Shown: positions 8,568-32,732, counted from the first letter of the stretch. The stretch is 32,732 nt of DNA from Candidatus Parcubacteria bacterium (GCA_046051155.1 JBJOOS010000001.1:1-32732); one strand, 5' to 3'. Numbers and translations: made by a program. The notes: a model not told the origin generated them from the letters alone.

Positions 8568-8573
8568 ATTATA
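8568..8573 (-). promoter_or_regulatory. Consensus -10 box TATAAT exactly 6 nt upstream of the DUF2177 ATG (leaderless-type)
   Basis: The minus strand reads gtgTATAATtagcgcATG, with no Shine-Dalgarno sequence. Confidence 0.5.
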
Positions 8574-8590
8574 CACGGAGATGTGCTCTG

Positions 8591-8661
8591 TCGGGCCGCC
8601 GGGAATCGAACCCGGTCTCTACGAACCCGAATCGTATGTACTACCGGCATACTCCGGCCCG
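8591..8661 (-). tRNA. tRNA-Pro (anticodon CGG), no encoded CCA, atypical G8/G14
   Basis: cgggccg-ga-gtat-gccggta-gtac-a-tacga-ttCGGgt-tcgta-gaga-ccggg-ttcgatt-cccgg-cggcccg-a. The cloverleaf is good, but positions 8 and 14 are G/G instead of U/A. Confidence 0.75.
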
Positions 8662-8744
8662 ACACAGGACACCTCCTGCTTGCACTTTCGCCCTCTTGTT
8701 GTACCACGTTCATGATACTATACAAATACACAGTACTTCCTCGT

Positions 8745-9200
8745 ATGAAAACGGACAAAACACGCGTATACGTTTGGCTCGCCGTGCTCGTGGCGGATAT
8801 AATTTTGTTGAGCATCGCTTTGAGTGGCGGGATCACCTTTGATATTTTTCAACTAATATTTGTCTTCTCAGCTCTGTTCATCACCGCCGTTCCGGTTCGG
8901 ATTTCTGAAAGTAGTAGCCGTTTTAAGAATTGGTTTGGATACGGGATACCGATTGCGTTGCTGTTGCCGGTCATATACTTCGTATACGACTATTACACAT
9001 GCACGGGTAAATTTTGCCAACTTGGCGATATGATTTCTGGAGGGTTGTTCTGCATCGGAGCGGCACTGTTCGCACTTTTCTACACATTTGGCCTGTACGC
9101 TCGGAGGTGGAGGGAGGCATTCGCCCTCTCTGTTTTGGTGGTTGAGTTGGTACTATTAGTATGGGTTGGCTCTCGAATAATTTCCGCAAGCACGATGTAA
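8745..9200 (+). CDS. Hypothetical integral membrane protein (about 4 TM)
   Basis: The track ORF 8556-9200 begins inside tRNA-Pro, so I used the first ATG after the tRNA (MKTDKTRVYVWLAVLVADIILL...). The region is visibly AT-richer than its surroundings. No family recognised. Confidence 0.55.
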   Translation: MKTDKTRVYVWLAVLVADIILLSIALSGGITFDIFQLIFVFSALFITAVPVRISESSSRFKNWFGYGIPIALLLPVIYFVYDYYTCTGKFCQLGDMISGGLFCIGAALFALFYTFGLYARRWREAFALSVLVVELVLLVWVGSRIISASTM

Positions 9201-9204
9201 CATA

Positions 9205-9873
9205 TTACTGGAAAGAATATCCTAGAACATCGAAATCCTTGGAGCCATACCTGGTCGCCCAGTAGAGATAGTCGGGTGTGATTATCTCCGGGACCATGCG
9301 AGACGTGACGAGATCTTCAGTGCGTAGCTGCTCATAGACCAAGTCCGCACAGGTTGTTCTCTTATGCCCAACCTCTGGTAGGCCGAATGTATAATCGGGG
9401 TCGTTTGCAACCCGTATCAACGCACTACTCATGTCGGCTACTTCCGATTCACTATCTTTCGGGCGCATGATGACAAACGTGCGGACATCATCATTAAACC
9501 AGTCACTTCCCGACAGCTGCGTAACTTGAATATCGTCTTTGGACTGTTTTTCAGTCCCAACCGCTTCTACGATCTGATCACCGCCAACATAGTAGGCCAC
9601 ATGTGTGAAAAAGGGGTGCGCGAGCGTATCGAAGAGCCAGGTGCGCTTCGTGATGTATCTACGAATGAGGATATCACCAGGCAACAACGCACAGGTACGT
9701 ATTGTAGTGCACTGCACGTGAGTAGCGGCGAGCGAGCTCGTAACTTGTTCTGCAGTCAATCGAAATAAGTTTGCGTATACGGCCTCCTCGACAGACACCC
9801 ACCGCATACAGACAAACAATCCAGCTCCGACAACGAGCGTCACGGCTATGGATAACGCAATTCTATTCCACAT
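9205..9873 (-). CDS. Permuted papain-like amidase, C92/YiiX-like, N-terminally anchored
   Basis: 222 aa. The motif order PGDILIRR ... THVAYYVGGDQIVEA ... VIMRP ... YTFG ... TCADLVYE fits the YiiX/C92 family from memory. An N-terminal TM helix is present. Confidence 0.6.
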   Translation of the reverse strand: MWNRIALSIAVTLVVGAGLFVCMRWVSVEEAVYANLFRLTAEQVTSSLAATHVQCTTIRTCALLPGDILIRRYITKRTWLFDTLAHPFFTHVAYYVGGDQIVEAVGTEKQSKDDIQVTQLSGSDWFNDDVRTFVIMRPKDSESEVADMSSALIRVANDPDYTFGLPEVGHKRTTCADLVYEQLRTEDLVTSRMVPEIITPDYLYWATRYGSKDFDVLGYSFQ

Positions 9874-9876
9874 TTC

Positions 9877-9953
9877 TGGTGCGCTCTATAGGATTCGAAC
9901 CTATGACCTTTCGCGTGTGAAGCGAACGCTCTAACCAACTGAGCTAAGAGCGC
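9877..9953 (-). tRNA. tRNA-Val (anticodon CAC), CCA encoded
   Basis: gcgctcttagctcagttggttagagcgttcgcttCACacgcgaaaggtcataggttcgaatcctatagagcgcacca. The 3' end lies 3 nt before the ATG of the C92-like gene. Confidence 0.9.
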
Positions 9954-10003
9954 GAACACGCTTCACCTTATCAGAAATGCGCGCAGATTCCCAGACAAGA
10001 TAT

Positions 10004-11254
10004 CTAGAATGCGGCAAACCCGTTTGGAGTCCCAAGACCGGTCGGGCCATCATAGCCCACGAGAGCAGTGCAGAGGAGCGAGCCGCCACACGAGCCATTG
10101 GAACCAGAGACCACGTCGTGAAGACTGGTGGAGCTACCCTGACTGTACGGGAGCTGTGGCGACAGTGAGCCTCCGCCGAGCAGATACGATGCAGCGATGA
10201 TGGGCGACGCAAGCGAGGTTCCACCGACCTGGAACCAGCCCGACTGGCCACTGTAACGCACACTGTCGTAGACAGCCGCTCCGGTAGCTGGATCGGCCAC
10301 AGCCGAGACGTCAGAGACGGTTCGTCGGGCACAGGAGCCGTTGGTCTGCCACGTCGGCTTGGGCTCATAGGCGCTACAGCCGCTTCCTGTCCCGAGCCAC
10401 GCGGCCTCGCCGCCGTAACTGCCGTCAGGATTAAAGACCAGCGAAGTGCCGCCAACCGCTGTCACATAGCGAGACGCGGCTGGATATTCTACTCCGTATC
10501 CATTGTCTCCCGCAGATGCCGTAATACTAATCCCTGGCTTATTGAAGTGTCCGTCATACGATGATGAAGTCTCGCTAGAGAATTCCCCGCCTCCCCACGA
10601 ATTAGAAATCGCATTGGCACCAAGCGTTGCCGCGCGATCTTCTGCGGTAAGCAGATTTGAGTAGCTTGATGAGTCAGCTTCGACAAGGAGAATACTGCAG
10701 TTCTGACACATTGCGTGAGCAGACTCCACGTCGAGAGCGACCTCGAGAGCCCAGCCAGAATTCACCGCCGGGTAACGAGTGCCGCCACGCTGATCCACCT
10801 TTTGGAAACAGGGCGTCGGAGACGAAGCAACCGCGACCGTACAGGTCGGCAGCGAAGAAATACCGAACGTCGAGGAATACTTTGCAAGGTCAGCAATAAT
10901 ATTGGGATCGTCGTATGCATCAACGATAGCGAGGACCTTGCGTCCTGAGACGGCTGTTTGGGACCCATAGGCGGCATGAAGGTTGGCGGGAGATAGTCCC
11001 GATGGCAGTGTGTTGGTTAGGGGTATATTCCCCGCGTCAGTCACCACTCGAACATCGCAGGCCGCTCCACCCTCAACCGCGTCGGCACAGACACGAGAGT
11101 GGTGTACGTTTCGAACCGTGTTGAACAGGTCATTCAAGTGACCCTGCCTCTGATCTGATGGTTCGGACGAATTAATCCCCCTATCGGCGAGAGCAGACGG
11201 GCCGAAGCTTGCGAGTAAGCCAACCACGATTATTAATAGAGTTTTTTTATGCAT
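10004..11254 (-). CDS. Secreted S53 (sedolisin/kumamolisin-like) serine-carboxyl peptidase
   Basis: 416 aa with a signal peptide (MHKKTLLIIVVGLLASFGPSALA). Contains LSPANLHAAYG...KVLAIVDAYDDPNIIADLAKYSSTFG, E..LD in ALEVALDVE, SWGG, and the Ser motif GGTSLASP. Confidence 0.78.
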   Translation of the reverse strand: MHKKTLLIIVVGLLASFGPSALADRGINSSEPSDQRQGHLNDLFNTVRNVHHSRVCADAVEGGAACDVRVVTDAGNIPLTNTLPSGLSPANLHAAYGSQTAVSGRKVLAIVDAYDDPNIIADLAKYSSTFGISSLPTCTVAVASSPTPCFQKVDQRGGTRYPAVNSGWALEVALDVESAHAMCQNCSILLVEADSSSYSNLLTAEDRAATLGANAISNSWGGGEFSSETSSSYDGHFNKPGISITASAGDNGYGVEYPAASRYVTAVGGTSLVFNPDGSYGGEAAWLGTGSGCSAYEPKPTWQTNGSCARRTVSDVSAVADPATGAAVYDSVRYSGQSGWFQVGGTSLASPIIAASYLLGGGSLSPQLPYSQGSSTSLHDVVSGSNGSCGGSLLCTALVGYDGPTGLGTPNGFAAF

Positions 11255-11303
11255 GGAGGTAGTAGTTGCTTGGCCGCTCTAAATAGAGTTGCCGACGGTC
11301 TTC

Positions 11304-11720
11304 TTACCAACCTGTGATAATCGCACCCATCACCGCGAGCGAGAGAAGCGAACAGAAACATTCAAACAGCCACAGCTTGTAGCTTCTCTTCAGCCAAATC
11401 ACTTCCATCGAAGACGAGGTGACGAGGAGTCCGAGCCACGCCCACGCGGCGCAGATAGCCCCCTTGTACCACGTTTCTGCTCCCATCACTGGTGAAGAAA
11501 ATACTACCCACATCGCGCCAGCGAAGACGGTCGCAGTCACGAGATTCGCGACGAAGTTCCACAGCATCTGCGGCACCATGTCTGAGAACTTTTCATTCCC
11601 CGTAGGGACTATGTTGGAGAGTCTCATCCAGAGCTTGCCTGCGACTGGTCCGTGCATCAAGAACCCGACGACGAACATCGCGAGCGCCGCTACAAACACT
11701 GCTACAAAGTTTATTTCCAT
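11304..11720 (-). CDS. DUF1761-like membrane protein
   Basis: 138 aa. MEINFVAVFVAALAMFVVGFLMHGPVAGKLWMRL resembles the DUF1761 N-terminus. 4 TM helices predicted. Confidence 0.65.
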   Translation of the reverse strand: MEINFVAVFVAALAMFVVGFLMHGPVAGKLWMRLSNIVPTGNEKFSDMVPQMLWNFVANLVTATVFAGAMWVVFSSPVMGAETWYKGAICAAWAWLGLLVTSSSMEVIWLKRSYKLWLFECFCSLLSLAVMGAIITGW

Positions 11721-11729
11721 ACCGTTTGG

Positions 11730-12194
11730 TTAACTGTTAAAGGCTTCTTCGAGCTTAGCAACATCAAACTTCTTCATCTTAAGAAACGCTTGCGTGACCT
11801 TCCCTATCTTCCCCTTGTCCCCGCTCGCCATCATCGTGTCCATCGCGGTGGGTACCACCTGCCACGAGAGCCCGTACTTATCCTTAAGCCACCCGCACTG
11901 ACTCTCGCTCCCACCGCCCGCGGTGAGCTTCTCCCAGTAATAGTCTACCTCTTTTTGGTCTTCGCATTTGATAACAAGGGATATCGCCTCGGTGAACTTA
12001 AACATCGGTCCCGCAGTCATCAGACTCAACTCTTGATCAAATATCGTGAGCGTCGCCATCTCCACATTTCCTGACGGCGTATCCGAGAGCTCGCCAGCGC
12101 TACGCAGGGTCGCGTTTGGAAACACAGAAAGGTAAAAGTCAGTAATCTCCTTAAGATTTTTATCGAACCAGAGAAACGGGGTTAGTTTTTTCAT
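11730..12194 (-). CDS. VOC-superfamily protein, PhnB / 3-demethylubiquinone-9 3-methyltransferase-domain like
   Basis: 154 aa. ITPFLWF-type start (LTPFLWFDKN) and CGWLKDKYGLSWQVVP are characteristic of this family. Confidence 0.75.
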   Translation of the reverse strand: MKKLTPFLWFDKNLKEITDFYLSVFPNATLRSAGELSDTPSGNVEMATLTIFDQELSLMTAGPMFKFTEAISLVIKCEDQKEVDYYWEKLTAGGGSESQCGWLKDKYGLSWQVVPTAMDTMMASGDKGKIGKVTQAFLKMKKFDVAKLEEAFNS

Positions 12195-12226
12195 ATGCCA
12201 ATTGTAGCACTCGGGCTCAAAAACTT

Positions 12227-12302
12227 TGGTGGACCCTAGGAGATTCGAACTCCTGACCCCCTCATTGCAAATGAGGTGCTCTACCAGCTGAGCTAAGGGC
12301 CC
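12227..12302 (-). tRNA. tRNA-Ala (anticodon UGC), CCA encoded
   Basis: gggcccttagctcagctggtagagcacctcattTGCaatgagggggtcaggagttcgaatctcctagggtccacca. G3:U70 is present. Confidence 0.9.
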
Positions 12303-18955: not shown

Positions 18956-20978
18956 GTTTGCGAGCCTTTGGTCCTGTGCCCTCGAGTTTATAAATTTCGT
19001 CGCGGATGAGCGCTGCTGTCTCGAAGTCGAGTTTCTCTACTGCCTCTGCCATCTCTTCCCTCTTGCGCGCGACAAATGCTTTCGGGTCGTCTTTATACGC
19101 CAGCGTGTCGAGCACGAGGAGCTCATCTATCGTGCGCTGGTGCTCGGTGCGCATAGACGCGGCGATGTCGTGAATCTCTTTTTTAATCGTGAGCGGAGTG
19201 ATGCCGTGCTTCGTGTTGTACGCCATCTGGAGTGCGCGACGGCGATTGGTCTCGCTAATCGCGCGGTCCAACGAGCCCGTCATGTTGTCGGCGTAGAGAA
19301 TCACGCGGCCGAGGACGTTACGCGCCGCGCGACCGATAGTCTGTATGAGCGATGTCTCGCTGCGCAGGAAGCCCTCCTTGTCTGCGTCGAGGATGCCGAC
19401 GAGTTCCACTTCTGGCAGGTCGAGTCCTTCGCGGAGCAGGTTCACACCGACGAGAATGTCGAAGCCGCCCTGGCGAAACTTCGTGAGGATGTCTATGCGG
19501 TCTATCGTCTTCACGTCTGAGTGGAGGTATTCGGCCTTGATTCCCTTCTCGCGCAGGAAGGACGCAAGGTCTTCTGCCATCTGCTTGGTGAGCGTAGTCG
19601 CGAGCGCGCGGCCGCCGCGCTTAATCACCACTTCTGCTTCAGCAATAAAATCCGCAATCTGTCCCTTGTACTCTCCGGTCTCGACAATCGGGCGGACCGT
19701 AAGCTCTGGGTCGATGAGACCGGTCGGGCGAATCACTTGCTCTACTACCTGCTCTGAATGCTGCTTCTCGTATGCGCCTGGTGTCGCGCTTGTGTACACG
19801 ACCTGTCCGACGCGCTTTTCAAACTCTTCGAAGCGAAGTGGGCGATTGTCGCGGGCACTCGGCAGGCGGAAGCCATACTCCACGAGCACGTCCTTGCGCG
19901 ATTTGTCGCCCGCATACATGCCGCCTATTTGGGAAACTGTGACGTGTGACTCATCTATCACGGTGAGGAAGTCTGCGGAGCCGTCTTTCGTGTGCGGGAA
20001 ATACGACAGAAGCGTGAACGGCGGTTCGCCTGGCTTACGCCCGTCGAAGTGCCGCGAGTAGTTCTCGATGCCGCTCGTGTATCCGAGCTCGCGGATGAGC
20101 GCGAGGTCGTGGAGCGTGCGGCGCTTCAGGCGCTCGTGCTCGAGCGGCTTCTCTTCGCGCTTAAACTTAGCGAGCTGCTCGTCGAGCTCCAGCTTAATGT
20201 CTTCGATGGCGCGCAGGCGCTCGTCTTCGTTTGTCACGAAGTGCTTCGCCGGGAAGACGAACACTGACCGTGGCTCTGCAATCTTCGCACGAGAGACTGG
20301 GTCGAGCTGGTGGATACTCGCGATAGCGCTCCCATCAAAGGTAATGCGGAATATCGCGCGCTCGTTGACTGGCATAAATTCAAGCGAGTTCCCTACTGCG
20401 CGCAACTGCCCCGGATTGAGGTCGGCGTTTGTGCGTTCGAAATAAATGCCGACGAGCTTGCGTATGAGCGCGGAGCGATTCTCTTCGCTGCCCTGCTCTA
20501 TTTTTACGTGCACTTTTTCATATTGCTCCGGCGAACCGAGGCCGTAGATGGCCGAGACTGAAGCGACGATGATGACGTCCTTGCGCGTGAGCAGCGCCTG
20601 CGTCGCCGCGTGACGCAGGCGGTCTATCTCTTGGTTAATCATCGCCTCCTTCTCTATATAGGTATCGGAGTGCGCGATGTACGCCTCTGGCTGGTAGTAG
20701 TCGTAGTACGAGACGAAGTAGTGCACCGCGTTTTCAGGAAAGAACTCGCGATATTCCTGCGCGAGCTGTGCAGCGAGGGTCTTGTTGTGTGCGAGCACGA
20801 GTGTTGGTTTGTCGTTCTTCGCGATAACGTTTGCCACGGTAAAGGTCTTCCCGCTTCCAGTCACACCAAAAAGCGTCTGGTGATGCAGACCTTTCTTCAG
20901 CCCGTCGGAGAGCTTCTCAATTGCCTGCGGCTGATCGCCCGCAGGCTCAAATGGAAGATGGAGTTTGAAATTAGCCAT
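18924..20978 (-). CDS. uvrB: Excinuclease ABC subunit B
   Basis: Start taken at [23 protein letters not shown]. Contains Walker [13 protein letters not shown], the beta-hairpin region [10 protein letters not shown], helicase motifs, and a C-terminal UVR motif [17 protein letters not shown]. The ATG overlaps the tgt stop (ATGGCTAA). Confidence 0.95.
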
Positions 20979-22224
20979 AGTATTGTCGTACAAATTCTGC
21001 ACGGTATTCGTCAAAACGTCCATCAATAATAGCTTGGCGCGCACCCTTCACGAGCGCGAGGATGAAGCCGACATTATGCATCGAGCAGATCATAGAGCCG
21101 AGCATCTCTTTGGAGCGGATGAGGTGTGCCACGTATGCACGTGTGAATGGCTCGGTACCAGCGATGCTGACTTCAGAATCGAGCGGACCGAAATCCTCTT
21201 TGAAGCGTTCTCCCGTGAGATGGATGATTCCTTTTTTCGTATAAATAGAACCATGACGGCCGATGCGAGTGGCGGCGACGCAGTCGAAGAGGTCCATCCC
21301 GTGCGCGATACCCTCGAGAATGTCGCCCGGCTCGCCGATGCCGAGGAAATGCTTCGGCAATTCTTCTGGTAATTCCCCTACTGCCGCTTGGAGCGCGCCG
21401 CGCATGTCTTCTTTGCTAAATGAGCCGCCGATACCGATGCCATCGAAGCCGAGCGACGCGATTTCTCGTGCGCTTTCCTTGCGCAAATCTTTGTGGCGAC
21501 CGCCCTGCACAATGCCGAAGATGGCCTGCTTTTGTGATGCATCGATATTCTGTCGGTGCGCTTTCAGACTACGCTCGGCCCAGCGGTGTGTGCGCTCCAT
21601 CGCCTCTCGCTGATATTCGTATGGCTCGTTCGGCGAGGTGCACTCGTCAAACGCGAAGAAGAGGTCAGCACCTAAGGCGTGCTGAATTTCTACCGAGCGC
21701 TCGGGCGTGAAGCGGTGAAGCGAGCCGTCGAGATGCGAAGTGAACGACACGCCCTCGTCGTCGATGACCGCGAGCTGGCCGTGCTGGCTGGCCACGTCTT
21801 CGTCGTAGACCGCCACCGATTCCTCCTGTGGCGCATCCTCTTTTACAAACTTAGTAATGGTCTTCCCGAATGCCGCGCCGAGCGAGAAGACTTGGAATCC
21901 GCCAGAGTCGGTCATCGTGGGCGCTGTTTTGCCTCCTTTTTCCCAGCCCATAAACTTCCCGAGACCTCCGCCTTTCTGAACGATTTTTTCTCCTGGCTGA
22001 AGGTACAAGTGATAGGTATTTGCGAGCACCACATCTGCGCCAAGATCTACGAGCTGCTCGGGTAGAATACCTTTCACGTTGGCTTTTGTGCCGACGGGGA
22101 CGAAGGCGGGAGTGTGAATCACGCCGTGCGGAGTCGTGAGTACGGCAGCGCGCGCTTTATGATTGGCGGATGCCGCCCCGCTGCCTGGCGCGCGTGCTTC
22201 TATCTGGAATGAGATGCTACTCAT
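20971..22224 (-). CDS. tgt: tRNA-guanine transglycosylase (queuine tRNA-ribosyltransferase)
   Basis: 417 aa. Contains TPAFVPVGT, DSGGFQVFSL and GMDLFDCVAATR. The usual CxCxxC zinc motif is replaced by VSIAGT. Confidence 0.9.
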   Translation of the reverse strand: MSSISFQIEARAPGSGAASANHKARAAVLTTPHGVIHTPAFVPVGTKANVKGILPEQLVDLGADVVLANTYHLYLQPGEKIVQKGGGLGKFMGWEKGGKTAPTMTDSGGFQVFSLGAAFGKTITKFVKEDAPQEESVAVYDEDVASQHGQLAVIDDEGVSFTSHLDGSLHRFTPERSVEIQHALGADLFFAFDECTSPNEPYEYQREAMERTHRWAERSLKAHRQNIDASQKQAIFGIVQGGRHKDLRKESAREIASLGFDGIGIGGSFSKEDMRGALQAAVGELPEELPKHFLGIGEPGDILEGIAHGMDLFDCVAATRIGRHGSIYTKKGIIHLTGERFKEDFGPLDSEVSIAGTEPFTRAYVAHLIRSKEMLGSMICSMHNVGFILALVKGARQAIIDGRFDEYRAEFVRQYYG

Positions 22225-22835: not shown

Positions 22836-23144
22836 CTACGCCCCTTGAAAAGCTTTAAATCGTTTAATCTCCTCTGCGACGGCGTCCTTGGCGAGCTGTT
22901 CGTGGGCGGGAACCTCCTTGTTGAGAAAGGCGGTAAGCGCTGCCGCGTCGCCGCCCCCCGCGAGCCTGGCGAATTCATCACGCATCTCTGGAGCGAGCTT
23001 GCCGACTACCGCGAGTGTCGCCGCCTTAAGCGCCACTTCGCCAAACTGCCCGATGAGCTCCTGCTGTTCGGCGATAGGAAGGTCTGTAATCCCGAGGTCG
23101 CTCGCAATCGCCGCTGTTAGTTCGTCTTGCATAGGTGAAATCAT
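22836..23144 (-). CDS. Small helical hypothetical protein (possibly DUF5663-like)
   Basis: 102 aa, acidic, all-helical in character (LPIAEQQELIGQFGEVALKAATLAVVGKL). The family assignment is from memory and unverified. Confidence 0.55.
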   Translation of the reverse strand: MISPMQDELTAAIASDLGITDLPIAEQQELIGQFGEVALKAATLAVVGKLAPEMRDEFARLAGGGDAAALTAFLNKEVPAHEQLAKDAVAEEIKRFKAFQGA

Positions 23145-23152
23145 AGCATGAG

Positions 23153-25438
23153 TTATTTATCGGTAGGCAACTTGACCCGCTCACTGAAGTCGCCCGGTCC
23201 CGACACCTTCAACCACGACGAGAACACGCGACGAAGACCACGCGCATATACTGCATCTTTAGGCTGATACGTTGCTTCGCCGTTGACGAGACGAATCGGA
23301 AGGCGGTAACTTCCCTTCGCGTCTTCACCAATCCCATAGACTGTCTCCTTCGGATGGAGGAGAAGATACTCCTTGGCCTTATTCGTATACTTCTCTGGGT
23401 CTGAACCTCCATAGACAAATACGTGTTTCGCCGCACGGTATATGCCAGTCTCTTTCTCCGGCACCACGACGCCGAATTTATTTGGCACAAACATCTCAGT
23501 ACTACCTGGCTGAACGGTCTCAGCAATGGGGGCGTCATGGATTGGTGTCTCACCAGTTGGTGCATCGGCGTGCACACTAGCGCCTGTATCGGGTGTGGCG
23601 TCCGCGGTATCGTCCGGCACGATTTCCCAATGTCCGCCCGGCGTTGGAGCCTCAACAGTTGTCTCTGGTACCACATGTCCACTACCCGCCGCGTCTGGCA
23701 TTTCAGGACTGTCTACGGCGAGCTTAACTTCTGGTTCTGAGGCAACGGAGGTCGTTACCTCCCCCGAGGAATGACCGACCTGCTGATCAAGACCTGTATC
23801 AGGATTGTCTGAGTCATAGGCGGCCTCGGCGTCCTGATACGAGGGCTCTGGAGCCTGCCCCTCCGGAGCGGGCACCGGTGCTTGGACGTCGTCGGGAGCG
23901 GGAGACACCGCATCACTTGGAACGGCCTCTGGTGTACCCTCTGATGTGGGCAACGTCTCAGCAGGCGAAGAAGCCGAAGATGCTGCCGACACCTCACTCG
24001 GTACGGTTGCGGCGGCGGGCGGCGGCGCCTCTGCTGTCTGGGGCGCAACCGGTGGCACGACAACTCGCTCCGGCACAGGAGCCACGTGCGCCGGCGGGGC
24101 GTGCAGCCCTCTCTCCTGGACGTACGCGTTATGCCCATCAGTGTGATGAAACGCGAGGTTGTGCTTCAGCCACTCAGATATTCTCTCAGGAGCAGAGTCG
24201 GGGATATGTAAGCCAGTGAGCGACCACCCCTCTTTAATCGCGAGACCTGGAACTCCTGAAAAAATCGCCAAGGCGACGGTGGCTGCAGTACCGTGCTTCT
24301 TCCACTTCTCAAATTTCGTCCGAGCAGTTCCTCTCTCTGCCTCCTTTTTGGCGAGACGTTTCTCCAGGGTTCCCTCGACCAGAGCGTAGGTACCGAGAGA
24401 CGAGAGGGATCTTTGTCCAAGCTTCGCAGCGCTGAGAAGCGTCACCAAAGTCGAGGCGCCACCCGTCGCAAGTGACGCTCCAAAGAGTGCGCCCGACACT
24501 GCAACTTTATATTTGAGCGGGAGCTTCCGGTACCATTCGCCCGCTTTAAGTAAGCTTTCTCCCGCGTTTTTACCAAGCGCTTGTATCTTTCTCGTGAGTT
24601 CGACATCGCGCAACTGAAGCGTTTTTTCACCAATGCGCCGACTCTGTTCGGCGAGATACCCTTTTGCCTTTTTAAAATCCTCAGAGCCGCCTGCAATGGC
24701 TTCACGACTGTTGTCGAGGAATTCTTCTGTAACCTGGCCTGCTTTCTCTTTTGCTCCGCTGGCAAATCGCCCAACGAGCCCCTTCAGCTTCTTCTTCCAT
24801 TCAAAAGGAGTCTTCCACTCCTCTTCCTCCTTTGCATACGGGAGTTCAGCGAGACCCTCGCTTACTAGGTCCTCATTCGCTGGCGGATACACCGTCGGGA
24901 TTCTCGGCCCGCGTCGCGAATGCTTCTCCACCTCTTCGCGGATTTTCGTTTCGCGGCTCGTGTCGACGTCATGCACGCGCGGTATAGAGAACGCGGCAAT
25001 GTCAGCCGCCTCTGCGCGGGATACTCCGGCGATGTCTTCCTTCGAATACCCAAGGTCTTCGAGCTTGCCCTCAGACTTCCAATCCCATTGTCCATTATTC
25101 TCCGACGGTGCGGGTACATCAACCCCTTGCCCCTCTCTCTCCAAATCCCTTCGCTCAATATCCCTCTGTATGGCTTGCAATTCCTGAAGATGCTCGTCTG
25201 AGAACGCAGACGGAGCTACCGTACCAGCTGGCGCTGGTTCCTGCGTGAGCGGAACATCGGGAAAGTGCCGAACTCCCTCCTCTTTTGCCATCCTAATTGC
25301 CTCTTTCTTAGCCCGCACATTTGGACCGCGCGGCGGTAAAGTAACGAGGACACCTTCTTCTGCCGCACGCTCCAGAGAAGCGAACCGCTGATCCTTATCG
25401 CGCGGTTTTCTCGGTGGACGATTAATACCCCCAGCCAT
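23153..25438 (-). CDS. 761-aa membrane protein with a charged N-terminal region, two hydrophobic segments, a Pro/Ala/Glu/Asp-rich stalk and a C-terminal globular domain
   Basis: Long ORF whose ATG lies 1 nt after the stop of the upstream ATPase. Hydrophobic segments sit at about aa 311-338 and 383-400. Low complexity spans about aa 445-645. No family recognised. Confidence 0.75.
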   Translation of the reverse strand: MAGGINRPPRKPRDKDQRFASLERAAEEGVLVTLPPRGPNVRAKKEAIRMAKEEGVRHFPDVPLTQEPAPAGTVAPSAFSDEHLQELQAIQRDIERRDLEREGQGVDVPAPSENNGQWDWKSEGKLEDLGYSKEDIAGVSRAEAADIAAFSIPRVHDVDTSRETKIREEVEKHSRRGPRIPTVYPPANEDLVSEGLAELPYAKEEEEWKTPFEWKKKLKGLVGRFASGAKEKAGQVTEEFLDNSREAIAGGSEDFKKAKGYLAEQSRRIGEKTLQLRDVELTRKIQALGKNAGESLLKAGEWYRKLPLKYKVAVSGALFGASLATGGASTLVTLLSAAKLGQRSLSSLGTYALVEGTLEKRLAKKEAERGTARTKFEKWKKHGTAATVALAIFSGVPGLAIKEGWSLTGLHIPDSAPERISEWLKHNLAFHHTDGHNAYVQERGLHAPPAHVAPVPERVVVPPVAPQTAEAPPPAAATVPSEVSAASSASSPAETLPTSEGTPEAVPSDAVSPAPDDVQAPVPAPEGQAPEPSYQDAEAAYDSDNPDTGLDQQVGHSSGEVTTSVASEPEVKLAVDSPEMPDAAGSGHVVPETTVEAPTPGGHWEIVPDDTADATPDTGASVHADAPTGETPIHDAPIAETVQPGSTEMFVPNKFGVVVPEKETGIYRAAKHVFVYGGSDPEKYTNKAKEYLLLHPKETVYGIGEDAKGSYRLPIRLVNGEATYQPKDAVYARGLRRVFSSWLKVSGPGDFSERVKLPTDK

Positions 25439-25439
25439 A

Positions 25440-28196
25440 CTAGCGCGAGAGATACCGCTCCCGAATCATATTTTCAACAGTAGCACGGTCGCGCCCGTAG
25501 GTCAGCGAAGAAAGTTGCACTAGGTCCTGCACCTGTTCGTGATTGAGCGGCGGGAGATCGACCGTCTTCATATCAAACGGCTTCTGCGGTATGCCTTTGG
25601 TGAGAATCTTCACATACGCATTTCTGAACTCGAGATTCACGAAATCGAGCGCCTTGAAGACCGGCGCAAACTGCTTCTCGAAGAACTCAGCATCTTCTTC
25701 GCCAACGCGGAAGATAGCCATGTTACCCACGTTGCCGAAGACGGCATCGCGCGTCTTCTCGTCTATCTGCGCGAGGAACTGGTGCGCCATCGAGAGCGAG
25801 AGCTTGTACTTGCGAGCCTCAGAGAGAATGCCTGGAATCGAGTCCGTGGTGATGTTCTGGAACTCGTCGATATAGAGATAGAAGGGTGGAAACTGTCCGC
25901 GCGGATTGTCAGCGCGCGAGAGCGCGGCCATGAAGAGCTTGCCCACGAGAATAAGACCGAGCAGGTTGGCGTTCTTCTCGCCGAGACGGCCCTTGGAGAG
26001 ATTCACGAGGAGAATCTTCTTATTATCCATCACCTCGCGGAAGTTGAACGAGGACTCCTGCTGGCCGACGATCGGACGGATAAAGTCGTTTGCGGTGAAG
26101 TCGTCAAACTTGTTGGTGATATACGGCACGATATTTTCGAGCGACGCGTCGCCGCCCGCCTTCGTTGCGATGTCAGTCCAGAACTGATTCACAATCGGAT
26201 TCATGCTGCGAGACAGCTTCAACCTGCGGAATTCGGTGTTTGAGAGAACGCGCGCGATGTCGAGTATGGTCGAGCCGCTGGTCGGATCTTCCATCACGAG
26301 CTGAGTCGCATTGCGGAAATACTGCTCGAAGGCTGGACCCATGCTCTCGGGCACGTCGCCGTAGAGGCGGCGGAATATCATCAAGAGCTCATTTACGATA
26401 AACGTCTTCTGCTCGGGGCGCGAGATATCGTATTCCAAGAAATTTAATCCAAACGGACGCGAGAGATCCGCTGGGTCGAAGTAGATAACGTCTTGGTAAC
26501 GCTCGGGCGGAACGGCGGCGAGGACATTCAGCACGTCAGAGCCGTGCGGGTCGATGAAGCAGCAGCCCTCGCCGTTTTTAATATCCTGAATAATAGACGC
26601 CGTCAGGAGCCCCGACTTACCGGTACCAGTCTGACCGATGATATAGAAATGACGGAGGCGATCCTCCATCTCCATCCGCACCTCCGTCTGCACATTGCGA
26701 TAGGTGTTCGTCCCTAGCATGAGCCCATCCTTCGGCAGAGTGAGCGGCGCGGGCGCGTGGGTGAAGCGTGCCTGCTTCAGGTGCGGGGAACTCTCGATGC
26801 CAGACGGCGGGAAGTGGTACATCGTTGTGAGCTCGCGGAGCGAGAGCGGCATCGCAGTCGCGTCTGGCAGACGGAACGAGAAGTCTTCGAAGAGGTCGCG
26901 TTCGTCGCCGCCGTGCGCGCGCACGAACTTAATCCGGTTGCCCTGCGTGTTGGTGAACTGATTAAACGCCGCCTCGAGTTCGCCGAGTACTTGCTCTGCC
27001 TTCTGCTCGTTCTTAGAGGAAGCGACGAGGCGGATCGTCGCGCCGACGATCGGTGTCGCGACCTTCTTCTCGACCTGTTCCACGTGCGTCTTATTCTCTT
27101 CTATCTGGCGCGTCTCGGCCTCCTTCGCCTTCTCCTCGTCCTTGGGCTTACTCGTGAAGAGTGTGCGGCCGAAGTCGCGTGCGATCTCGCCAAGCGCGGT
27201 CTCAGGCGTCGAGAAGGCTACGTGACGCTTCTCGCCTTTGCGCAGTGCCTGGAGAATCTTACGGTAGTGCTTCACGTGCCGCTCGGCGCGCGGCTCGATG
27301 ATAATCTGAAGGGCCGCGCCCTCTCCCTCGTGCTCTATTTTGGAAAACGCATTAATAATCGCATTTATCGGATCGTAGTCGAAGTCGGTATAGTCCTTGA
27401 GCGGAAGCGCGGCGTGCTCGGCGAAGTGAGCGGTCGCGGCGAGCGACTTCCCGCCAGAGACGAAGATGTTGTAATCGTTCTCCTGAGGCACGAGGTGCGC
27501 TTCGGGAAAGACGGCGAGCAATTGCTTCTCGAAGAGGTTGCGCTTCGTGTTCGGCACCGCCGCATAGAACTGTAACTCTGAACTGTCGGCCGGTATCGCG
27601 AGCTCAAGCGCGAAGTAGTGCGGCTCGCCTGGCACCGCCTGCTCAACCGAGAGGAGGCCCGCGTAGAGCTGTTCCATGCTCGATACCAGCTCCTTCAGCG
27701 GCTTCTCGCGCGCGCCCGTATCTGCGTTTTTATACTCAGGAAGCGCAACTTCGTAGAGCGTCATGTGGAGCGCTTGGAAGCGAGGAGTCTTCTCGTCGAG
27801 GCCCGACACCGGCAGGCCAGCCGCGATGTGCCGCACGAGGTAGCGATGGAAGTCGTCTGCGATATACGGATCCTGCATTTTCTCGACTACTGAAAGCACG
27901 TGTTTAATCCCCTTCTCTTCCATCGCGCTCTTCAGGCTCCGTATCACGTCTTCACTCCCGCCAAGGCGCAGCTCAGTGAGTAAACGCGAGGCAGTGTCGC
28001 CTGCCGCCGCTTCATCGACACGATATTTTTTAGCGAGAACGGTGGCTGGCGCTTCGTGGTGCTCGTGAATCGTCTCTGAGATTATTTCTGGTCGCGAGTG
28101 GTCAGACCCCGCGAGCTCTGCCTCCTTGCGCATTACCTGCTCTCGCAAGTACGCGAGCTCTTCTTCAGGCGTGGACAGCTTCGGTACAGATTCCAT
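25440..28196 (-). CDS. VirD4/TraD-like (type IV coupling protein family) P-loop ATPase with a large unknown N-terminal domain and no TM helix
   Basis: 918 aa. Contains Walker A IIGQTGTGKSGLL (about nt 26612-26637), Walker B FYLYIDEFQN, and a C-terminal MAHQFLAQIDEKTRDAVFGNVGNMAIFRVG resembling TraD/TraG C-terminal motifs. Confidence 0.75.
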   Translation of the reverse strand: MESVPKLSTPEEELAYLREQVMRKEAELAGSDHSRPEIISETIHEHHEAPATVLAKKYRVDEAAAGDTASRLLTELRLGGSEDVIRSLKSAMEEKGIKHVLSVVEKMQDPYIADDFHRYLVRHIAAGLPVSGLDEKTPRFQALHMTLYEVALPEYKNADTGAREKPLKELVSSMEQLYAGLLSVEQAVPGEPHYFALELAIPADSSELQFYAAVPNTKRNLFEKQLLAVFPEAHLVPQENDYNIFVSGGKSLAATAHFAEHAALPLKDYTDFDYDPINAIINAFSKIEHEGEGAALQIIIEPRAERHVKHYRKILQALRKGEKRHVAFSTPETALGEIARDFGRTLFTSKPKDEEKAKEAETRQIEENKTHVEQVEKKVATPIVGATIRLVASSKNEQKAEQVLGELEAAFNQFTNTQGNRIKFVRAHGGDERDLFEDFSFRLPDATAMPLSLRELTTMYHFPPSGIESSPHLKQARFTHAPAPLTLPKDGLMLGTNTYRNVQTEVRMEMEDRLRHFYIIGQTGTGKSGLLTASIIQDIKNGEGCCFIDPHGSDVLNVLAAVPPERYQDVIYFDPADLSRPFGLNFLEYDISRPEQKTFIVNELLMIFRRLYGDVPESMGPAFEQYFRNATQLVMEDPTSGSTILDIARVLSNTEFRRLKLSRSMNPIVNQFWTDIATKAGGDASLENIVPYITNKFDDFTANDFIRPIVGQQESSFNFREVMDNKKILLVNLSKGRLGEKNANLLGLILVGKLFMAALSRADNPRGQFPPFYLYIDEFQNITTDSIPGILSEARKYKLSLSMAHQFLAQIDEKTRDAVFGNVGNMAIFRVGEEDAEFFEKQFAPVFKALDFVNLEFRNAYVKILTKGIPQKPFDMKTVDLPPLNHEQVQDLVQLSSLTYGRDRATVENMIRERYLSR

Positions 28197-28203
28197 TTAC
28201 TTT

Positions 28204-28211
28204 AGTATACT
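28204..28211. promoter_or_regulatory. Palindromic AGTATACT giving a TATACT -10 box in both directions within the 17-nt divergent intergenic gap
   Basis: On the minus strand TATACT is followed by 7 nt and then the ATPase ATG. On the plus strand TATACT is followed by 2 nt and then ATG 28214, or by 8 nt and then ATG 28220. Confidence 0.4.
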
Positions 28212-28213
28212 CT

Positions 28214-28837
28214 ATGGGAATGCTCAACTTCTTAACCGCGTGTGCGCATCTCAATCCGATAGACATTATTAAGACCGGAAGCTATGTCGGCATCGCGTTC
28301 GTAGTTTTCGCCGAGAGCGGACTCTTAGTCGGCATCTTCTTTCCGGGAGATTCGCTTCTCTTCGCTTCCGGATTACTTGCTGGGGGCGGCGTGCTCGCCT
28401 TCTTCCCGCTTCTTTTATTCGTTGTTGTCGCGGCTATCGCCGGCGACTCGGTCGGCTATTGGTTTGGTAAGAATGTGGGAGTCAATTTCTTCAATCGCAA
28501 GGACTCGCTCATCTTCAAACAGGAGTACCTGAAGCGCACTCAGGCGTTCTATAAAAAGTACGGTGGCCGCGCCGTCGTGCTCGCGCGGTTCGTGCCCATC
28601 GTACGCACCATCGCACCGATTCTCGCTGGTATCGCAGGGATGAAATATGCCACCTTCCTCTCGTACAACATGCTCGGCGGTACACTCTGGGGCGCGGGCC
28701 TGCTCTCGCTCGGTTTCTTCCTCGGTACCCTTATCCCAAACAGCGAACACTACATCACCCCCATTTCAATCGTGATTATCGCCCTCTCCTTCCTACCTAT
28801 TATTGTAAACGTGGTGCGCGGCAAACGCGCGATTTAA
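28214..28837 (+). CDS. dedA: DedA/VTT-domain family membrane protein
   Basis: 207 aa. Contains FPGDSLLFASGLLAG and YGGRAVVLARFVPIVRTIAPILAGIAGMKY. Confidence 0.85.
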   Translation: MGMLNFLTACAHLNPIDIIKTGSYVGIAFVVFAESGLLVGIFFPGDSLLFASGLLAGGGVLAFFPLLLFVVVAAIAGDSVGYWFGKNVGVNFFNRKDSLIFKQEYLKRTQAFYKKYGGRAVVLARFVPIVRTIAPILAGIAGMKYATFLSYNMLGGTLWGAGLLSLGFFLGTLIPNSEHYITPISIVIIALSFLPIIVNVVRGKRAI

Positions 28838-30130: not shown

Positions 30131-30814
30131 TTACTTCACCAAAGGATCAATAGCCGCCTTGAAGGTGTCAAATGGATACGACCCTGCAATCAGCTTAGTG
30201 CCGATGATAAAGGAGGGTGTCGACTGGACGTTTAACCCCTGCCCTTCAGTCTTATCTGCAGTCAGCATAGCGTCGTAGGTGCTTGCGTTCGCCTTCACGT
30301 CAGCGGCGACTGCCGCGGCGTCGATGCCAGAGATCGTTGCGTCGAGCGTGTCGATGGTAGCGGCGTTGCCGAAGCCTTGGTCGCCCTCTTGGTCTTGGGC
30401 GTTATACATCGCGGTGCGCCAGGTGAAGTATTTGTCGGGATAGAGCTTCCACACCGCGCGACCGTACTCGCCGCCCGTGATCGAGTCCTTACCGAGGAAT
30501 GCCATATCCTTGAATACCAGCTTCACCTTGCCGGTGTCTATGTAAGAACTCATCACCTGCGGAAGCGCCGTTAGCTCGAACTGCTTGCACGCGGGGCACT
30601 GATAATCAGACCACTCAACAATAGTGACCGGCGCGTTTGCCTGGCCGATGAAGGGCTCGTTATCGGTCTTCACCTTCGAGGCATCAACCGTCGTCGAAAT
30701 GGGTGTGGTGCTACCCGACTGGGCGCCGAAGTAGACTGCGCCGACAACCAGAAGGCCTACAAACACCACCACAATAACAAGCAGAACCTTGGTACTCCGG
30801 TCGTTCAGATCCAT
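30131..30814 (-). CDS. DsbA-like thiol:disulfide oxidoreductase (thioredoxin fold), anchored
   Basis: N-terminal TM helix, active site WSDYQCPACKQFE, C-terminal STPSFIIG. Confidence 0.82.
   Translation of the reverse strand: MDLNDRSTKVLLVIVVVFVGLLVVGAVYFGAQSGSTTPISTTVDASKVKTDNEPFIGQANAPVTIVEWSDYQCPACKQFELTALPQVMSSYIDTGKVKLVFKDMAFLGKDSITGGEYGRAVWKLYPDKYFTWRTAMYNAQDQEGDQGFGNAATIDTLDATISGIDAAAVAADVKANASTYDAMLTADKTEGQGLNVQSTPSFIIGTKLIAGSYPFDTFKAAIDPLVK
30258..30502. repeat. Near-identical 245-bp tract shared by the two DsbA-like paralogs (copy 1)
   Basis: Hand alignment with 30946-31190 at a fixed offset of 688 shows about 11 mismatches. The first 72 nt are identical. Confidence 0.8.
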
Positions 30815-30815
30815 A

Positions 30816-31547
30816 CTACTTACCGAGTACGGCTGTTATCGCCGTTTCAAACTGAGCGTAGGGATATGCGCCAGCGAGGAGCTGAGTACCGATGATGAAC
30901 GACGGCGTCGCGCTCACGCCAAGCTTGGCCGCCTCTGCTTTGTCCGCAGTCAGCATAGCGTCGTAGGTGCTTGCGTTCGCCTTCACGTCAGCGGCGACTG
31001 CCGCGGCGTCGATGCCAGAAATCGTCGCGTCAAGCGTGTCGATGGTAGCGGCGTTACCGAAGCCTTTGTCGCCCTCTTGGTCTTGGGCGTTATACATCGC
31101 GGTGCGCCAGGTGAAGTATTGTGAGGGATAGAGCTTCCACACTGCGCGACTGTACTCGCCGCCCGTGATCGAGTCCTTACCGAGGAATGCGAAATCCTTA
31201 AAGACAATCTTCACCTTACCGGTCTCCACATAGTTCTTGAGAATGTCTGGCATAGCGGCACCTATCGTGATCTGTGGAACACCGCCAGTCTCAAACGCTT
31301 TACAGTACGGACACTGGAAGTCGCTCCAGAAAGCGATAGTGACTGGCGCATTTGCCTGGCCGATGAATGGCTCGCCATCAGTCTTAACGTCCTTAATATT
31401 TACCTTCGGCGCCTGGGGCTGTTGACCCGCTGCGACCTGAGCACCCGCTACAGGATGCTGACCATTATAGAAAACGGCGCCGGCAATAAGGGCCAAACCG
31501 GCGAACAGCGCTATCGGCATGAACTTGTCATTTGTTTTGGTTTCCAT
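30816..31547 (-). CDS. DsbA-like thiol:disulfide oxidoreductase, tandem paralog
   Basis: Active site WSDFQCPYCKAFE and ATPSFIIG. Its stop lies 1 nt before the downstream paralog's ATG. Start is uncertain: ATG 31547, or an upstream GTG up to 31583. Confidence 0.8.
   Translation of the reverse strand: METKTNDKFMPIALFAGLALIAGAVFYNGQHPVAGAQVAAGQQPQAPKVNIKDVKTDGEPFIGQANAPVTIAFWSDFQCPYCKAFETGGVPQITIGAAMPDILKNYVETGKVKIVFKDFAFLGKDSITGGEYSRAVWKLYPSQYFTWRTAMYNAQDQEGDKGFGNAATIDTLDATISGIDAAAVAADVKANASTYDAMLTADKAEAAKLGVSATPSFIIGTQLLAGAYPYAQFETAITAVLGK
30946..31190. repeat. Near-identical 245-bp tract shared by the two DsbA-like paralogs (copy 2)
   Basis: See 30258-30502. Confidence 0.8.
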
Positions 31548-31638
31548 ATCCGAGGATAATACCACACCCCTCCTTACCGCCACCAGAAGGTGCTACTCTT
31601 ATAGGTGGATCTTCCACCAACCGCTACAGGAGGCGGAG

Positions 31639-32149: not shown

Positions 32150-32732
32150 TTACTGATACTGAATATAGCTCGGCGTAGGAATCATCTTCAGCACTTCTGC
32201 GGGAGAGAGCATCCCGTCGGCGGGTGGACGCACGTCATTTTTATAGAAAAGTTTGATGCCGGTAAACTGCACCGGCTCAGGTACGATTACTCTACTGTAG
32301 GTACCGTACTTCTTCGCCTTGGAGCCGAAGCCGTCCATGTCCATCACGATCTGCACCTCCGGCAGAGGCAATATCTGTTTATAATTGGTCACCATATCTT
32401 GTGTAAAGCGGTGGACGACGAGCAGCTTCGGCGGAAGGTGATACTTCTGCACGAGTCCGGCGAGATAGCTCGCGGAGTAGTTGACGTCGGTCGCGTCCAT
32501 CGTGCCGATGACGCGGCCGGGAGCGTCGCCAAACTTCATCGAGAACTCAGGGTCAATAGCGAGGTGCACCTGCGGCATGCGCAGGTACTTCTCGAGCAGA
32601 GGGATCTCGCGCTCGACCGTACTCTTCCCCACCTGTATGTCGAGAATCACGATGCCGTGTGCGCGCTCGGCCAGCTCAAGCGCGTGGTCTATCTGGTCGT
32701 CGGGCATGCGCAGGATGTAGTTCCCCTCTGCG
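32150..32732 (-). CDS. Hypothetical protein, C-terminal part (the frame stays open to the right edge)
   Basis: 185-aa ORF from ATG 32707, but the same frame has no stop through 32732 (..AEGNYILRM..), so the gene probably starts outside the window. No confident family. Confidence 0.55.
   Translation of the reverse strand, partial: AEGNYILRMPDDQIDHALELAERAHGIVILDIQVGKSTVEREIPLLEKYLRMPQVHLAIDPEFSMKFGDAPGRVIGTMDATDVNYSASYLAGLVQKYHLPPKLLVVHRFTQDMVTNYKQILPLPEVQIVMDMDGFGSKAKKYGTYSRVIVPEPVQFTGIKLFYKNDVRPPADGMLSPAEVLKMIPTPSYIQYQ

Follow-up and report, generated by a model that had tools for sequence, protein, structure and literature searches.

A candidate Patescibacteria membrane motor module built on an ATPase with VirB4-like and coupling-protein-like domains

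The window, as we call the whole analysed stretch of DNA, comprises 32,732 nucleotides from a Candidatus Parcubacteria bacterium (GCA_046051155.1 JBJOOS010000001.1:1-32732). Three consecutive, tightly packed genes on its minus strand encode a 918-residue ATPase, a 761-residue protein with hydrophobic segments, referred to below as the big protein, and a 102-residue acidic helical protein (Table 1). In our estimate there is an even chance that they represent the version, found in Kaiserbacteria, of a module of four parts that is fixed in the chromosomes of Patescibacteria, mainly of the class Paceibacteria. With equally balanced confidence, we propose that the module consists of an ATPase resembling both the N-terminal domain of VirB4 and the motor of type IV coupling proteins (T4CPs), an N-terminal extension of about 135 residues (N-ext), a variable protein of 640–1318 residues, and a DUF5663 protein of about 100 residues. 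In most relatives, N-ext is encoded by its own gene upstream of an ATPase that carries a transmembrane (TM) helix, whereas in the lineage of the window N-ext is fused to the ATPase and the gene order is permuted. The whole would constitute a membrane motor complex derived from ATPases of type IV secretion systems (T4SSs) and equipped with adaptor subunits, with its conduit left unspecified; we consider the cases for and against this complete reading to be evenly matched.

The motor of the ATPase is a nucleotide-binding domain of the FtsK/HerA P-loop type with Walker A and Walker B motifs and an inserted all-alpha domain, the combination by which T4CPs are recognized. The Walker A motif is invariant in 145 homologues, and residues D777 and E778 of the Walker B motif are likewise invariant in homologues. 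Further ATPase motifs are ARKY at residue 794, AHQF at residue 804, and GNVGN at residue 821. The Pfam family TraG-D_C is matched above its threshold (26.5 bits, cut-off 22), and DUF87 just under threshold and in the Walker A region only (21.2 versus 23.2 bits). A family profile compared with sequences from the PDB matched TrwB best (E 4.5e-6) and also DotL (E 6e-5). The full-length AlphaFold model, which has a predicted local distance difference test (pLDDT) value of 81.9, superimposes on the soluble domain of TrwB with TM-scores of 0.63–0.67 and root-mean-square deviations (rmsd) of 4.5–5.4 Å over about 420–440 columns. The Foldseek matches of the model are TrwK/VirB4, TrwB, Cagbeta, and HerA, the last as a general ATPase fold only. 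By sequence and fold, the motor domain looks coupling-protein-like and catalytically intact, in agreement with an earlier note on this DNA, which had described a coupling-protein-type P-loop domain. The same note had reported that the ATPase has no TM anchor; no TM segment was found, and relatives bearing one are known. The sole hydrophobic window, at residues 741–763, corresponds to helix H740-762 of the AlphaFold model, which we interpret as part of the core of the nucleotide-binding domain.

The N-terminal region of about 500 residues, which the earlier note had called unrecognized, can be divided into N-ext and a DUF8128 domain. The match to DUF8128 (PF26449; PF26449.1) is precomputed for the window ATPase (P0001) and all listed homologues. 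Modelled alone, DUF8128 reached a pLDDT of 90.1, and its top 13 matches in a Foldseek search of the PDB were all TrwK/VirB4 of R388 (E 2e-6 to 1e-4, probability 1.0), with the next match at E 6e-3. Superposition on TrwK gave TMq values of only 0.38–0.42 and rmsd values of 9–12 Å. The full-length ATPase model obtained its best E-values to full-length TrwK. The ATPase thus joins an N-terminal domain with a VirB4-like predicted fold to a T4CP-like motor; it falls short of the full definition of either family. No match to N-ext was found in Pfam or the PDB. N-ext has a conserved core at about residues 85–125 (KGI..VLSVV..M.DPY..DDFHR.LV) and is homologous to the products of separate genes, 125–150 residues long, located directly upstream of TM-anchored relatives of the ATPase; the upstream gene product aligns to residues 10–135 of the window protein.

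T4CPs such as TrwB of R388, VirD4, TraD, and Cagbeta share with the window ATPase the P-loop motor with an all-alpha insert. They possess an N-terminal TM anchor, as do relatives of the ATPase at 35–43% identity, whereas the window protein lacks it and has instead the additional 345-residue domain similar to the VirB4 N-terminal domain and the fused N-ext in front of the motor. Its scores of 28–42 bits are far below the curated cut-offs of 250–800 for T4CP models of NCBIfam, among them CD1115 VirD4-like (41.8 bits, cut-off 250), SXT TraD (40.9 bits, cut-off 366), and TOL TraD (27.8 bits, cut-off 647). VirB4 proteins, exemplified by TrwK, have a two-domain plan like the one predicted for the window ATPase, an alpha/beta N-terminal domain followed by a C-terminal RecA-like ATPase. 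However, the window ATPase has no Pfam match to CagE_TrbE_VirB or AAA_10 at E ≤ 0.1, comparison of the family profile with PDB sequences yielded no VirB4 chain at E ≤ 1, and the TM-scores to VirB4 are low (0.25–0.42). The TM helix and N-terminal domain of the relatives recall VirB3-VirB4 fusions.

An exhaustive search for the ATPase family returned 20,017 clusters (50% identity) at E ≤ 1e-3, of which 5,136 also passed E ≤ 1e-30. The closest homologues of the window ATPase belong to Candidatus Kaiserbacteria and other Paceibacteria. Members of the nearest subfamily (43–50% identity, about 900–935 residues) are soluble and share the N-terminus F.SPEEEL.YLREQV. More distant members (35–43% identity, about 790–860 residues) align to window residues 140–915, and nearly all of them have one TM helix at the N-terminus and a stretch rich in Lys and Arg after it, which places the remainder of the TM-type ATPase in the cytoplasm. 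For each species, one genome was scanned, and the 80 best loci were retained, 75 of which are full-length. All lineage-named records among the 80 are Patescibacteria, including Kaiser-, Taylor-, Nomura-, Adler-, Moran-, Uhr-, Staskawicz-, and Peregrinibacteria as well as others. N-ext is fused to every one of the 35 ATPases without a TM helix that have an intact N-terminus, and one more such ATPase is cut at a contig start. Among the 75 full-length loci, TM-anchored ATPases are accompanied by a separate upstream N-ext gene in 19 and have no detected N-ext in 20. Because the soluble ATPases are fused in 35 of 35 cases, while N-ext is separate or absent in the TM-type, the lineage of the window has acquired this accessory gene as a fusion to the ATPase instead of the membrane anchor.

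Other architectures occur within the family. In nine TM-type loci without a detectable N-ext (for example L046, 122-622), a Lys/Glu-rich protein of 150–191 residues is encoded directly upstream of the ATPase and may be a divergent analogue of N-ext. Locus L074 (1257-6163) contains tandem genes for DUF8128-type ATPases of 819 and 858 residues, the second of which is 34% identical to the window protein over residues 196–917. Nine members of 1,270–2,000 residues (P0177, P0179, P0181, P0184, P0188, P0189, P0193, P0194, and P0197) carry Pro/Ala-rich low-complexity tails of about 450–1,200 residues after the cytoplasmic motor. Several of the tails are followed by no strong hydrophobic segment, and the tails may be a fused counterpart of the disordered region of the big protein.

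The big protein has no match in Pfam, NCBIfam, PHROG, or PADLOC, and Pfam yielded nothing significant for nine more big proteins. Its charged N-terminus, two hydrophobic segments, Pro/Ala-rich region, and C-terminal domain of about 115 residues, all listed in the earlier note, were found in the sequence. The charged N-terminal part is 300 residues long and contains no signal peptide. The hydrophobic segments occupy residues 314–337, which are rich in Gly and Ala, and residues 382–404; the loop between them is Lys/Arg-rich, with a net charge of about +7. These segments belong to the core (residues 300–404), which is the most conserved stretch of the protein (alignment A5). Kaiser-type big proteins have an extra third hydrophobic segment. 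Residues 413–640 include five Lys and Arg against 39 Asp and Glu. The C-terminal basic domain is about 30% identical over 113 residues among relatives linked by jackhmmer (L001, L006, and L002), and neither it nor the Pro/Ala-rich spacer is conserved across the whole family. The description of the protein as giant does not hold, since its 761 residues lie within the range of 640–1318 residues observed in relatives.

The big protein is also the most variable element of the locus. When the window is compared with related genomes, UvrA and UvrB are about 90% identical, the ATPase about 79%, and the 102-residue protein about 68%, while the big protein reaches about 25–32% in the core and C-terminal domain only. 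A homologue search with the 761-residue protein returned only four relatives, which have the core region in common, and jackhmmer searches of the locus open reading frames (ORFs) with its N-terminal, core, and C-terminal parts reached close relatives only. Because sequence searches reach few relatives, synteny and a motif search were used to find more of them. Big proteins of both gene orders described below contain the mid-chain motif (G/E)xY(N/Q)xLPxxxK, followed by a Gly/Ala-rich hydrophobic stretch of about 30 residues, Arg-Arg or Arg-Lys, and a shorter second hydrophobic stretch. Alignment by hhalign of big-protein cores from both gene orders, with sequences picked by this motif, gave a probability of 97.6% and an E-value of 3e-12.

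The gene that follows encodes, as previously described, a helical protein of 102 residues. The window copy scores 14.1 bits against PF18908 (DUF5663), below the cut-off of 23.7 (E 0.074). Its orthologue in locus L001, which is 68% identical, is annotated as PF18908, and 12 of 15 aligned relatives match this family at E ≤ 0.01. Judging by these relatives, the protein probably belongs to DUF5663. An analogy of the DUF5663 protein to WXG100 proteins of type VII secretion systems was dropped, since no WxG motif was seen on inspection.

DUF5663 genes are present in 15 loci of the species scan including partial ones, and in 14 of the full-length loci. All 14 have N-ext, and none of the 20 TM-type loci without N-ext contains DUF5663. 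The genes are arranged in two orders. In the Kaiser-type order, the ATPase is followed by the big protein and DUF5663; it is found in nine loci, namely the window and L001, L002, L005, L006, L007, L025, L034, and L059. In the TM-type order, the big protein and DUF5663 precede N-ext and the TM-anchored ATPase (L039, L043, L062, and L063, with variants in L038 and L057). A metagenome scan seeded with DUF5663 alone, using a four-sequence alignment of the TM-type group, recovered 28 loci. N-ext is directly downstream of DUF5663 in 27 of them, and the TM-anchored ATPase comes next in 23; the loci lacking N-ext or the ATPase are cut by contig ends. A complete big ORF (730–1318 residues) ends 3–48 nt upstream of DUF5663 in 17 of the 28 loci, and seven more have a big ORF lacking its 5' end. 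The big protein and DUF5663 thus form a genuine conserved cassette. The earlier note had named a lack of co-occurrence in other genomes as evidence that would speak against a pairing of ATPase and big protein; the three genes do co-occur, in both orders. It had also placed the stop codon of the ATPase one nucleotide from the ATG of the big-protein gene, which the sequence confirms. The corresponding spacing is −4 to +8 nt in seven of eight related loci with the ATPase-first order. A scan for promoters and terminators detected no informative intergenic sites between the genes.

Based on these observations, a mechanism can be proposed. The ATPase would act as a hexameric motor at the cytoplasmic membrane face. 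In the lineage of the window, it may be tethered through the conserved core of the big protein, which would serve as a membrane-side docking element. N-ext and DUF5663 could be adaptor or regulator subunits, comparable to IcmS, IcmW, and DotM for DotL and to CagZ for Cagbeta. ATP hydrolysis would drive the passage of a macromolecule through the membrane or its insertion there. Protein is a likelier substrate than conjugative DNA, perhaps the variable part of the partner itself. Judging by architecture, the closest functional precedents for such a module appear to be the Legionella DotL-DotM-DotN-IcmS-IcmW complex and Cagbeta-CagZ. In the Dot/Icm and Cagbeta-CagZ systems, the T4CP motor is assisted by a membrane protein of its own and by small, acidic, helical proteins that serve as adaptors or regulators. 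Sequence and structure searches with the ATPase had DotL and Cagbeta among their matches, whereas IcmS, IcmW, DotM, and CagZ showed no sequence or fold similarity to N-ext, DUF5663, or the big protein.

Several points weigh against the proposed motor complex. We infer the protein contacts, the formation of the hexamer, and the nature of the substrate. The TM-score between DUF8128 and the VirB4 domain is modest, about 0.4. The hhalign value for the cores is biased upward, because the sequences were selected by the motif that they share. The topology of the big protein, as predicted from its sequence, fits more than one arrangement. The cassette is adjacent to the ATPase in only 14 of the 75 full-length loci, and of the 26 soluble-type loci flanked on each side by 4 kb or more, 19 contain neither a big protein nor DUF5663 next to the ATPase. 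The neighbours in soluble-type loci without the cassette are ndk, dnaX, adk, map, and an RNase J-like gene. Therefore, tethering of the ATPase by the partner is not general, unless the cassette is located elsewhere in those genomes. Finally, a t4cp homologue of Southlakia epibionticum, which may or may not be of the DUF8128 type, was reported to be non-essential for epibiotic growth (PMC12102498).

The absence of T4SS genes around the ATPase has to be considered against the background of the phylum. Among 3,035 Patescibacteria genomes, 2,918 contain a total of 5,713 T4CP homologues, only 148 of which are near virB4; VirB4 itself was found in 2,417 genomes, and relaxases are very few (Quinonero-Coronel et al. 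2025, PMC12102498). The same study identified a separate bona fide VirB4 clade in Patescibacteria and raised the possibility that the T4CP homologues were exapted (PMC12102498). VirB4 is scored as present in five of six looked-up related genomes with this ATPase family (Table S1 of PMC12102498), one of them a Kaiserbacteria genome with an ATPase 79% identical to that of the window. Nomurabacteria GWD2_36_14 has four T4CP-type genes, the nearest candidate among them about 90 genes away from a VirB3/VirB4/VirB2 cluster. Our guess is that the ATPase of locus L022 is KKP96999.1 (t4cp1, 87% coverage, Table S3 of PMC12102498), an accession that the look-up did not list. No VirB4, VirB6, relaxase, or pilin family was detected by Pfam in the scanned ORFs of the window; no relaxase or mating-pair-formation genes occur among the neighbour genes and families examined in related loci, and no VirB3, VirB6, VirB8, or pilin among the neighbours examined. 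These neighbours are instead housekeeping genes or the set of N-ext, DUF5663, and the big protein. The ATPase thus differs from T4CPs in having no linkage to a relaxase or a T4SS. Since orphan T4CPs are common in the phylum and relatives of the window have VirB4, the orphan status is real but ordinary. The earlier note was right that the window contains no T4SS genes, but the orphan state it emphasized is the published norm, and a T4SS probably exists elsewhere in the genome of the window.

The ATPase could be the coupling protein of a distal T4SS made of VirB4, VirB3, VirB6, and pilin, with the module acting as a coupling complex that recruits substrates. We regard this as possible, though not probable. 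The fast-evolving big protein could then be an effector and DUF5663 its chaperone, and a conserved ATPase accompanied by a hypervariable protein and a small, acidic, helical one does recall effector/chaperone sets. The T4CP-like motor domain, the wide occurrence of VirB4 in the phylum and in five of the six related genomes, the coexistence of both gene types in GWD2_36_14, and the frequent separation of t4cp genes from virB4 (PMC12102498) are all in line with it. However, T4CP homologues occur in 96% of the genomes and VirB4 in 80%, and one Kaiserbacteria draft with this ATPase family is scored VirB4-negative, although it may be incomplete. The T4SS of Southlakia epibionticum is essential and has no recognizable coupling protein (PMC10633639), whereas its t4cp homologue is dispensable. 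The VirB4-like N-terminal domain is not a feature of T4CPs, and the scores of the ATPase are far under every curated T4CP threshold. There are several T4CP-like paralogues per genome, and another one could be the true coupling protein. For the T4SS-ATPase-derived motor complex that we favour, we lean slightly towards a function separate from the distal VirB4-type T4SS. A more far-reaching version, which we put forward tentatively and hold to be doubtful, is that the module is a hitherto unrecognized, lineage-wide Patescibacteria membrane machine independent of the VirB4 T4SS, in which the hexameric VirB4/VirD4-hybrid ATPase and its adaptors act on a hypervariable protein of the membrane or surface that serves contact with the host cell, inserting, exporting, or remodelling it.

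The earlier note had suggested that the ATPase and the big protein form a self-contained two-protein device, in which the soluble ATPase sits on a membrane protein with a cytoplasmic N-terminus and exposes the Pro/Ala-rich stalk and C-terminal domain outside the cell. We consider this unlikely. The tight start/stop spacing is conserved, the TM helix was lost exactly in the lineage in which N-ext is fused to the ATPase, and the extreme divergence of the partner would fit surface exposure. However, TM-anchored ATPases have the same partners, and therefore the supply of an anchor cannot be the reason why the pair exists. The partnership is older than the disappearance of the TM helix, and an adjacent partner is missing from most soluble-type loci. 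A two-protein device also leaves out N-ext and DUF5663.

The topology of the big protein bears on the same question. Should both hydrophobic segments cross the membrane, the protein would have its two termini on one side, and the charge of about +7 and the strong conservation of the loop suggest that the loop is cytoplasmic. An arrangement with the N-terminus inside and the C-terminus outside is possible if the first hydrophobic region forms a hairpin or re-entrant structure and the third segment crosses the membrane; the lack of a signal peptide, the positive loop, the third segment, and the acidic C-terminal half would all fit it. In the TM-type lineage, the halves of the big protein flanking the core are Lys/Glu-rich and, from their composition, look cytoplasmic. 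Because the Pro/Ala-rich tails of 400–1200 residues in some ATPase relatives follow a cytoplasmic motor, sequence of this kind is no evidence for an extracytoplasmic stalk, and the placement of the stalk outside the membrane was an assumption of the earlier note. In architecture, the membrane segment, long Pro-rich spacer, and small C-terminal globular domain are reminiscent of envelope-spanning proteins of the TonB/TolA type. In contrast to those, the partner has a 300-residue charged N-terminus before the core, no sequence match was found, and its energy source would be the ATPase, not ExbBD.

Relatives of the ATPase extend beyond Patescibacteria. In large Bacillus phages, phage G gp156 and phage JL gp150 are full-length structural homologues comprising both domains (Foldseek E 2e-38 and 2e-35), and JL gp150 superimposes on the window ATPase with a TM-score of 0.56 over 844 columns. 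The match of phrog_5156 to the window ATPase covers residues 202–913 (E 2e-67). Identity to the phage relatives is only about 23% (tblastn), and the JL gp150 gene is accompanied by a StbA/ParM-family gene, not by DUF5663 or a big protein. In Bacillus phage JL (L113, 2823-7488), the 913-residue gp150 is wrongly labelled as the lipid A exporter MsbA, and its operon contains the StbA/ParM-family gp155 and several tiny ORFs. Motor-only homologues with 34% identity are encoded by a Bradyrhizobium plasmid (L112, 7083-9209) and a Sulfitobacter plasmid (L111, 7989-9176). They have unrelated N-termini and are located beside CHAT-domain/TPR proteins or transposases on non-mobilizable plasmids.

A housekeeping DNA translocase of the FtsK/HerA kind, which would segregate chromosomes during division or take part in the uptake or processing of DNA and be tethered by its partners to the membrane or divisome, is a very unlikely explanation. 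The ATPase is a member of the FtsK-HerA superfamily, in which T4CPs pump DNA, and it is near-universal, vertically inherited, and strongly conserved. Its neighbours include genes of DNA metabolism (dnaX in 13 loci, gyrB/gyrA, dnaE, and uvrABC in the window), and the structural homologue of phage JL shares its operon with a segregation protein of the StbA/ParM family. However, the neighbours vary by lineage and look like ordinary synteny, and the identity of the phage relatives is low. Pfam and NCBIfam gave no match of the ATPase to the FtsK_SpoIIIE motor or to the gamma (KOPS-binding) domain. No HAS-barrel of HerA was found, DUF87 is sub-threshold, and the N-terminal domain matches VirB4. No DNA-binding element was identified in the ATPase.

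A HerA/MADS-type ATPase that serves defence against phages or belongs to a mobile element, and whose variable partner acts as sensor or effector, is hardly credible: it is suggested by weak PADLOC matches of the ATPase alone to mad8 (E 7e-11, 40 bits) and to HerA models, the surroundings of the plasmid homologues, the homologues in phages, and the hypervariable partner, but PADLOC gave no match for the partner proteins, these contain no nuclease, protease, or other effector domain, and there is about one copy per locus, unlike in defence islands. The genes neighbouring the family are housekeeping and not mobile (uvrABC, tgt, FKBP, dnaX, gyrAB, adk, and map), this position is stable in many genomes, and no integrase or other mobile-element gene was seen among the neighbours examined. 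This housekeeping setting and the high conservation argue against a mobile or defence role in Patescibacteria.

The motor complex favoured here belongs to the known world of T4SS and FtsK-HerA ATPases and does not constitute a separate category. Orphan T4CP-like genes of Patescibacteria have been published, and both domain families are catalogued as DUFs. In the literature searched, thousands of orphan T4CP homologues are noted, and neither their architecture nor their partners are described; full-text searches returned no papers on DUF8128 or DUF5663. Three points appear to be new: the VirB4-like nature of DUF8128, which is predicted from models; the replacement of the TM helix by a fused N-ext; and the conserved cassette that connects DUF8128 and N-ext with DUF5663 and with a hypervariable protein containing a hydrophobic core. 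A large family of orphan T4CPs thereby gains a concrete anatomy, consisting of a VirB4-like N-terminal domain and motor, an accessory module, and the cassette. Patescibacteria account for much of bacterial diversity, and they combine a life attached to other cells with very small genomes. Under these conditions, gene sets that are large and conserved are likely to matter to their lifestyle. The module bears on what non-conjugative T4SS-type ATPases of episymbiotic bacteria do, and if the independent machine proposed above were real, it would be a secretion or surface-presentation pathway specific to ultra-small episymbionts. The natural loss of the TM helix by fusion and the defined candidate partners provide testable handles on the function of the module.

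Table 1. Coordinates of the three genes and of features within them, counted from the first nucleotide of the window (pI, isoelectric point).
Feature	Position	Strand	Basis
ATPase gene, 918 residues; N-ext, DUF8128, and T4CP-like P-loop motor, no TM	25440-28196	-	ORF call
N-ext, residues 1-135, helical, acidic, pI 5.3	27792..28196	-	homology to separate genes
DUF8128 domain, residues 136-480, alpha/beta	26757..27791	-	Pfam PF26449, domain model
P-loop motor domain, residues 481-918, all-alpha insert at about residues 596-710	25443..26756	-	model, profile
Walker A GQTGTGKS, residues 521-528	26613..26636	-	translation
Walker B FYLYIDE, residues 772-778	25863..25883	-	translation
ATPase/big-protein junction: TAG, 1 nt, ATG	25436..25442	-	read from sequence
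Big protein gene, 761 residues	23153-25438	-	ORF call
Conserved core, residues 300-404: GEWYRKLPLKYK motif, first hydrophobic segment, loop, second hydrophobic segment	24227..24541	-	
Pro/Ala/Glu/Asp/Thr-rich low-complexity region, residues 413-640, pI 4.1	23519..24202	-	composition
C-terminal basic domain, about 114 residues, pI 9.4	23156..23497	-	conserved in L001, L006, L002
Small acidic helical protein gene, 102 residues, probable DUF5663 member, pI 4.5	22836-23144	-	ORF call; PF18908 of relatives

Other ORFs of the window encode, according to Pfam, ATP synthase subunits, UvrA, UvrB, and UvrC, Ddl, TGT, and FKBP, as well as members of the MscL, ZIP, DedA/VTT, and DsbA-like families. Complete ORFs at 10004-11254 (416 residues) and 9205-9873 (222 residues) have no Pfam match, nor do ORFs at 8556-9200 and 32150-32707. 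The ATPase gene and a DedA/VTT-family gene (28214-28837, plus strand) are divergent, with 17 bp (28197-28213) between their start codons, and this pairing is kept in L001, L002, and L006. The genes uvrA, uvrB, and uvrC are all inside the window. The listed uvrB ORF, which begins with GTG at 21044, shares 74 nt (20971-21044) with the end of tgt, and the true start is probably the internal Met of MANFKLHL. Six tRNA genes on the minus strand at 6617-12302 (Ala-GGC, Ala-CGC, Pro-GGG, Pro-CGG, Val-CAC, and Ala-TGC) are mixed with genes for small membrane proteins and methyltransferases. The G+C content of the window is 50–60%, which is high relative to most known Patescibacteria genomes. Two tandem DsbA/Thioredoxin_4-like paralogues are encoded on the minus strand at 30131-30814 and 30816-31583. 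Their C-terminal regions contain long near-identical stretches, such as ATIDTLDATISGIDAAAVAADVKANASTYDAMLTADK, which suggests recent duplication or gene conversion.

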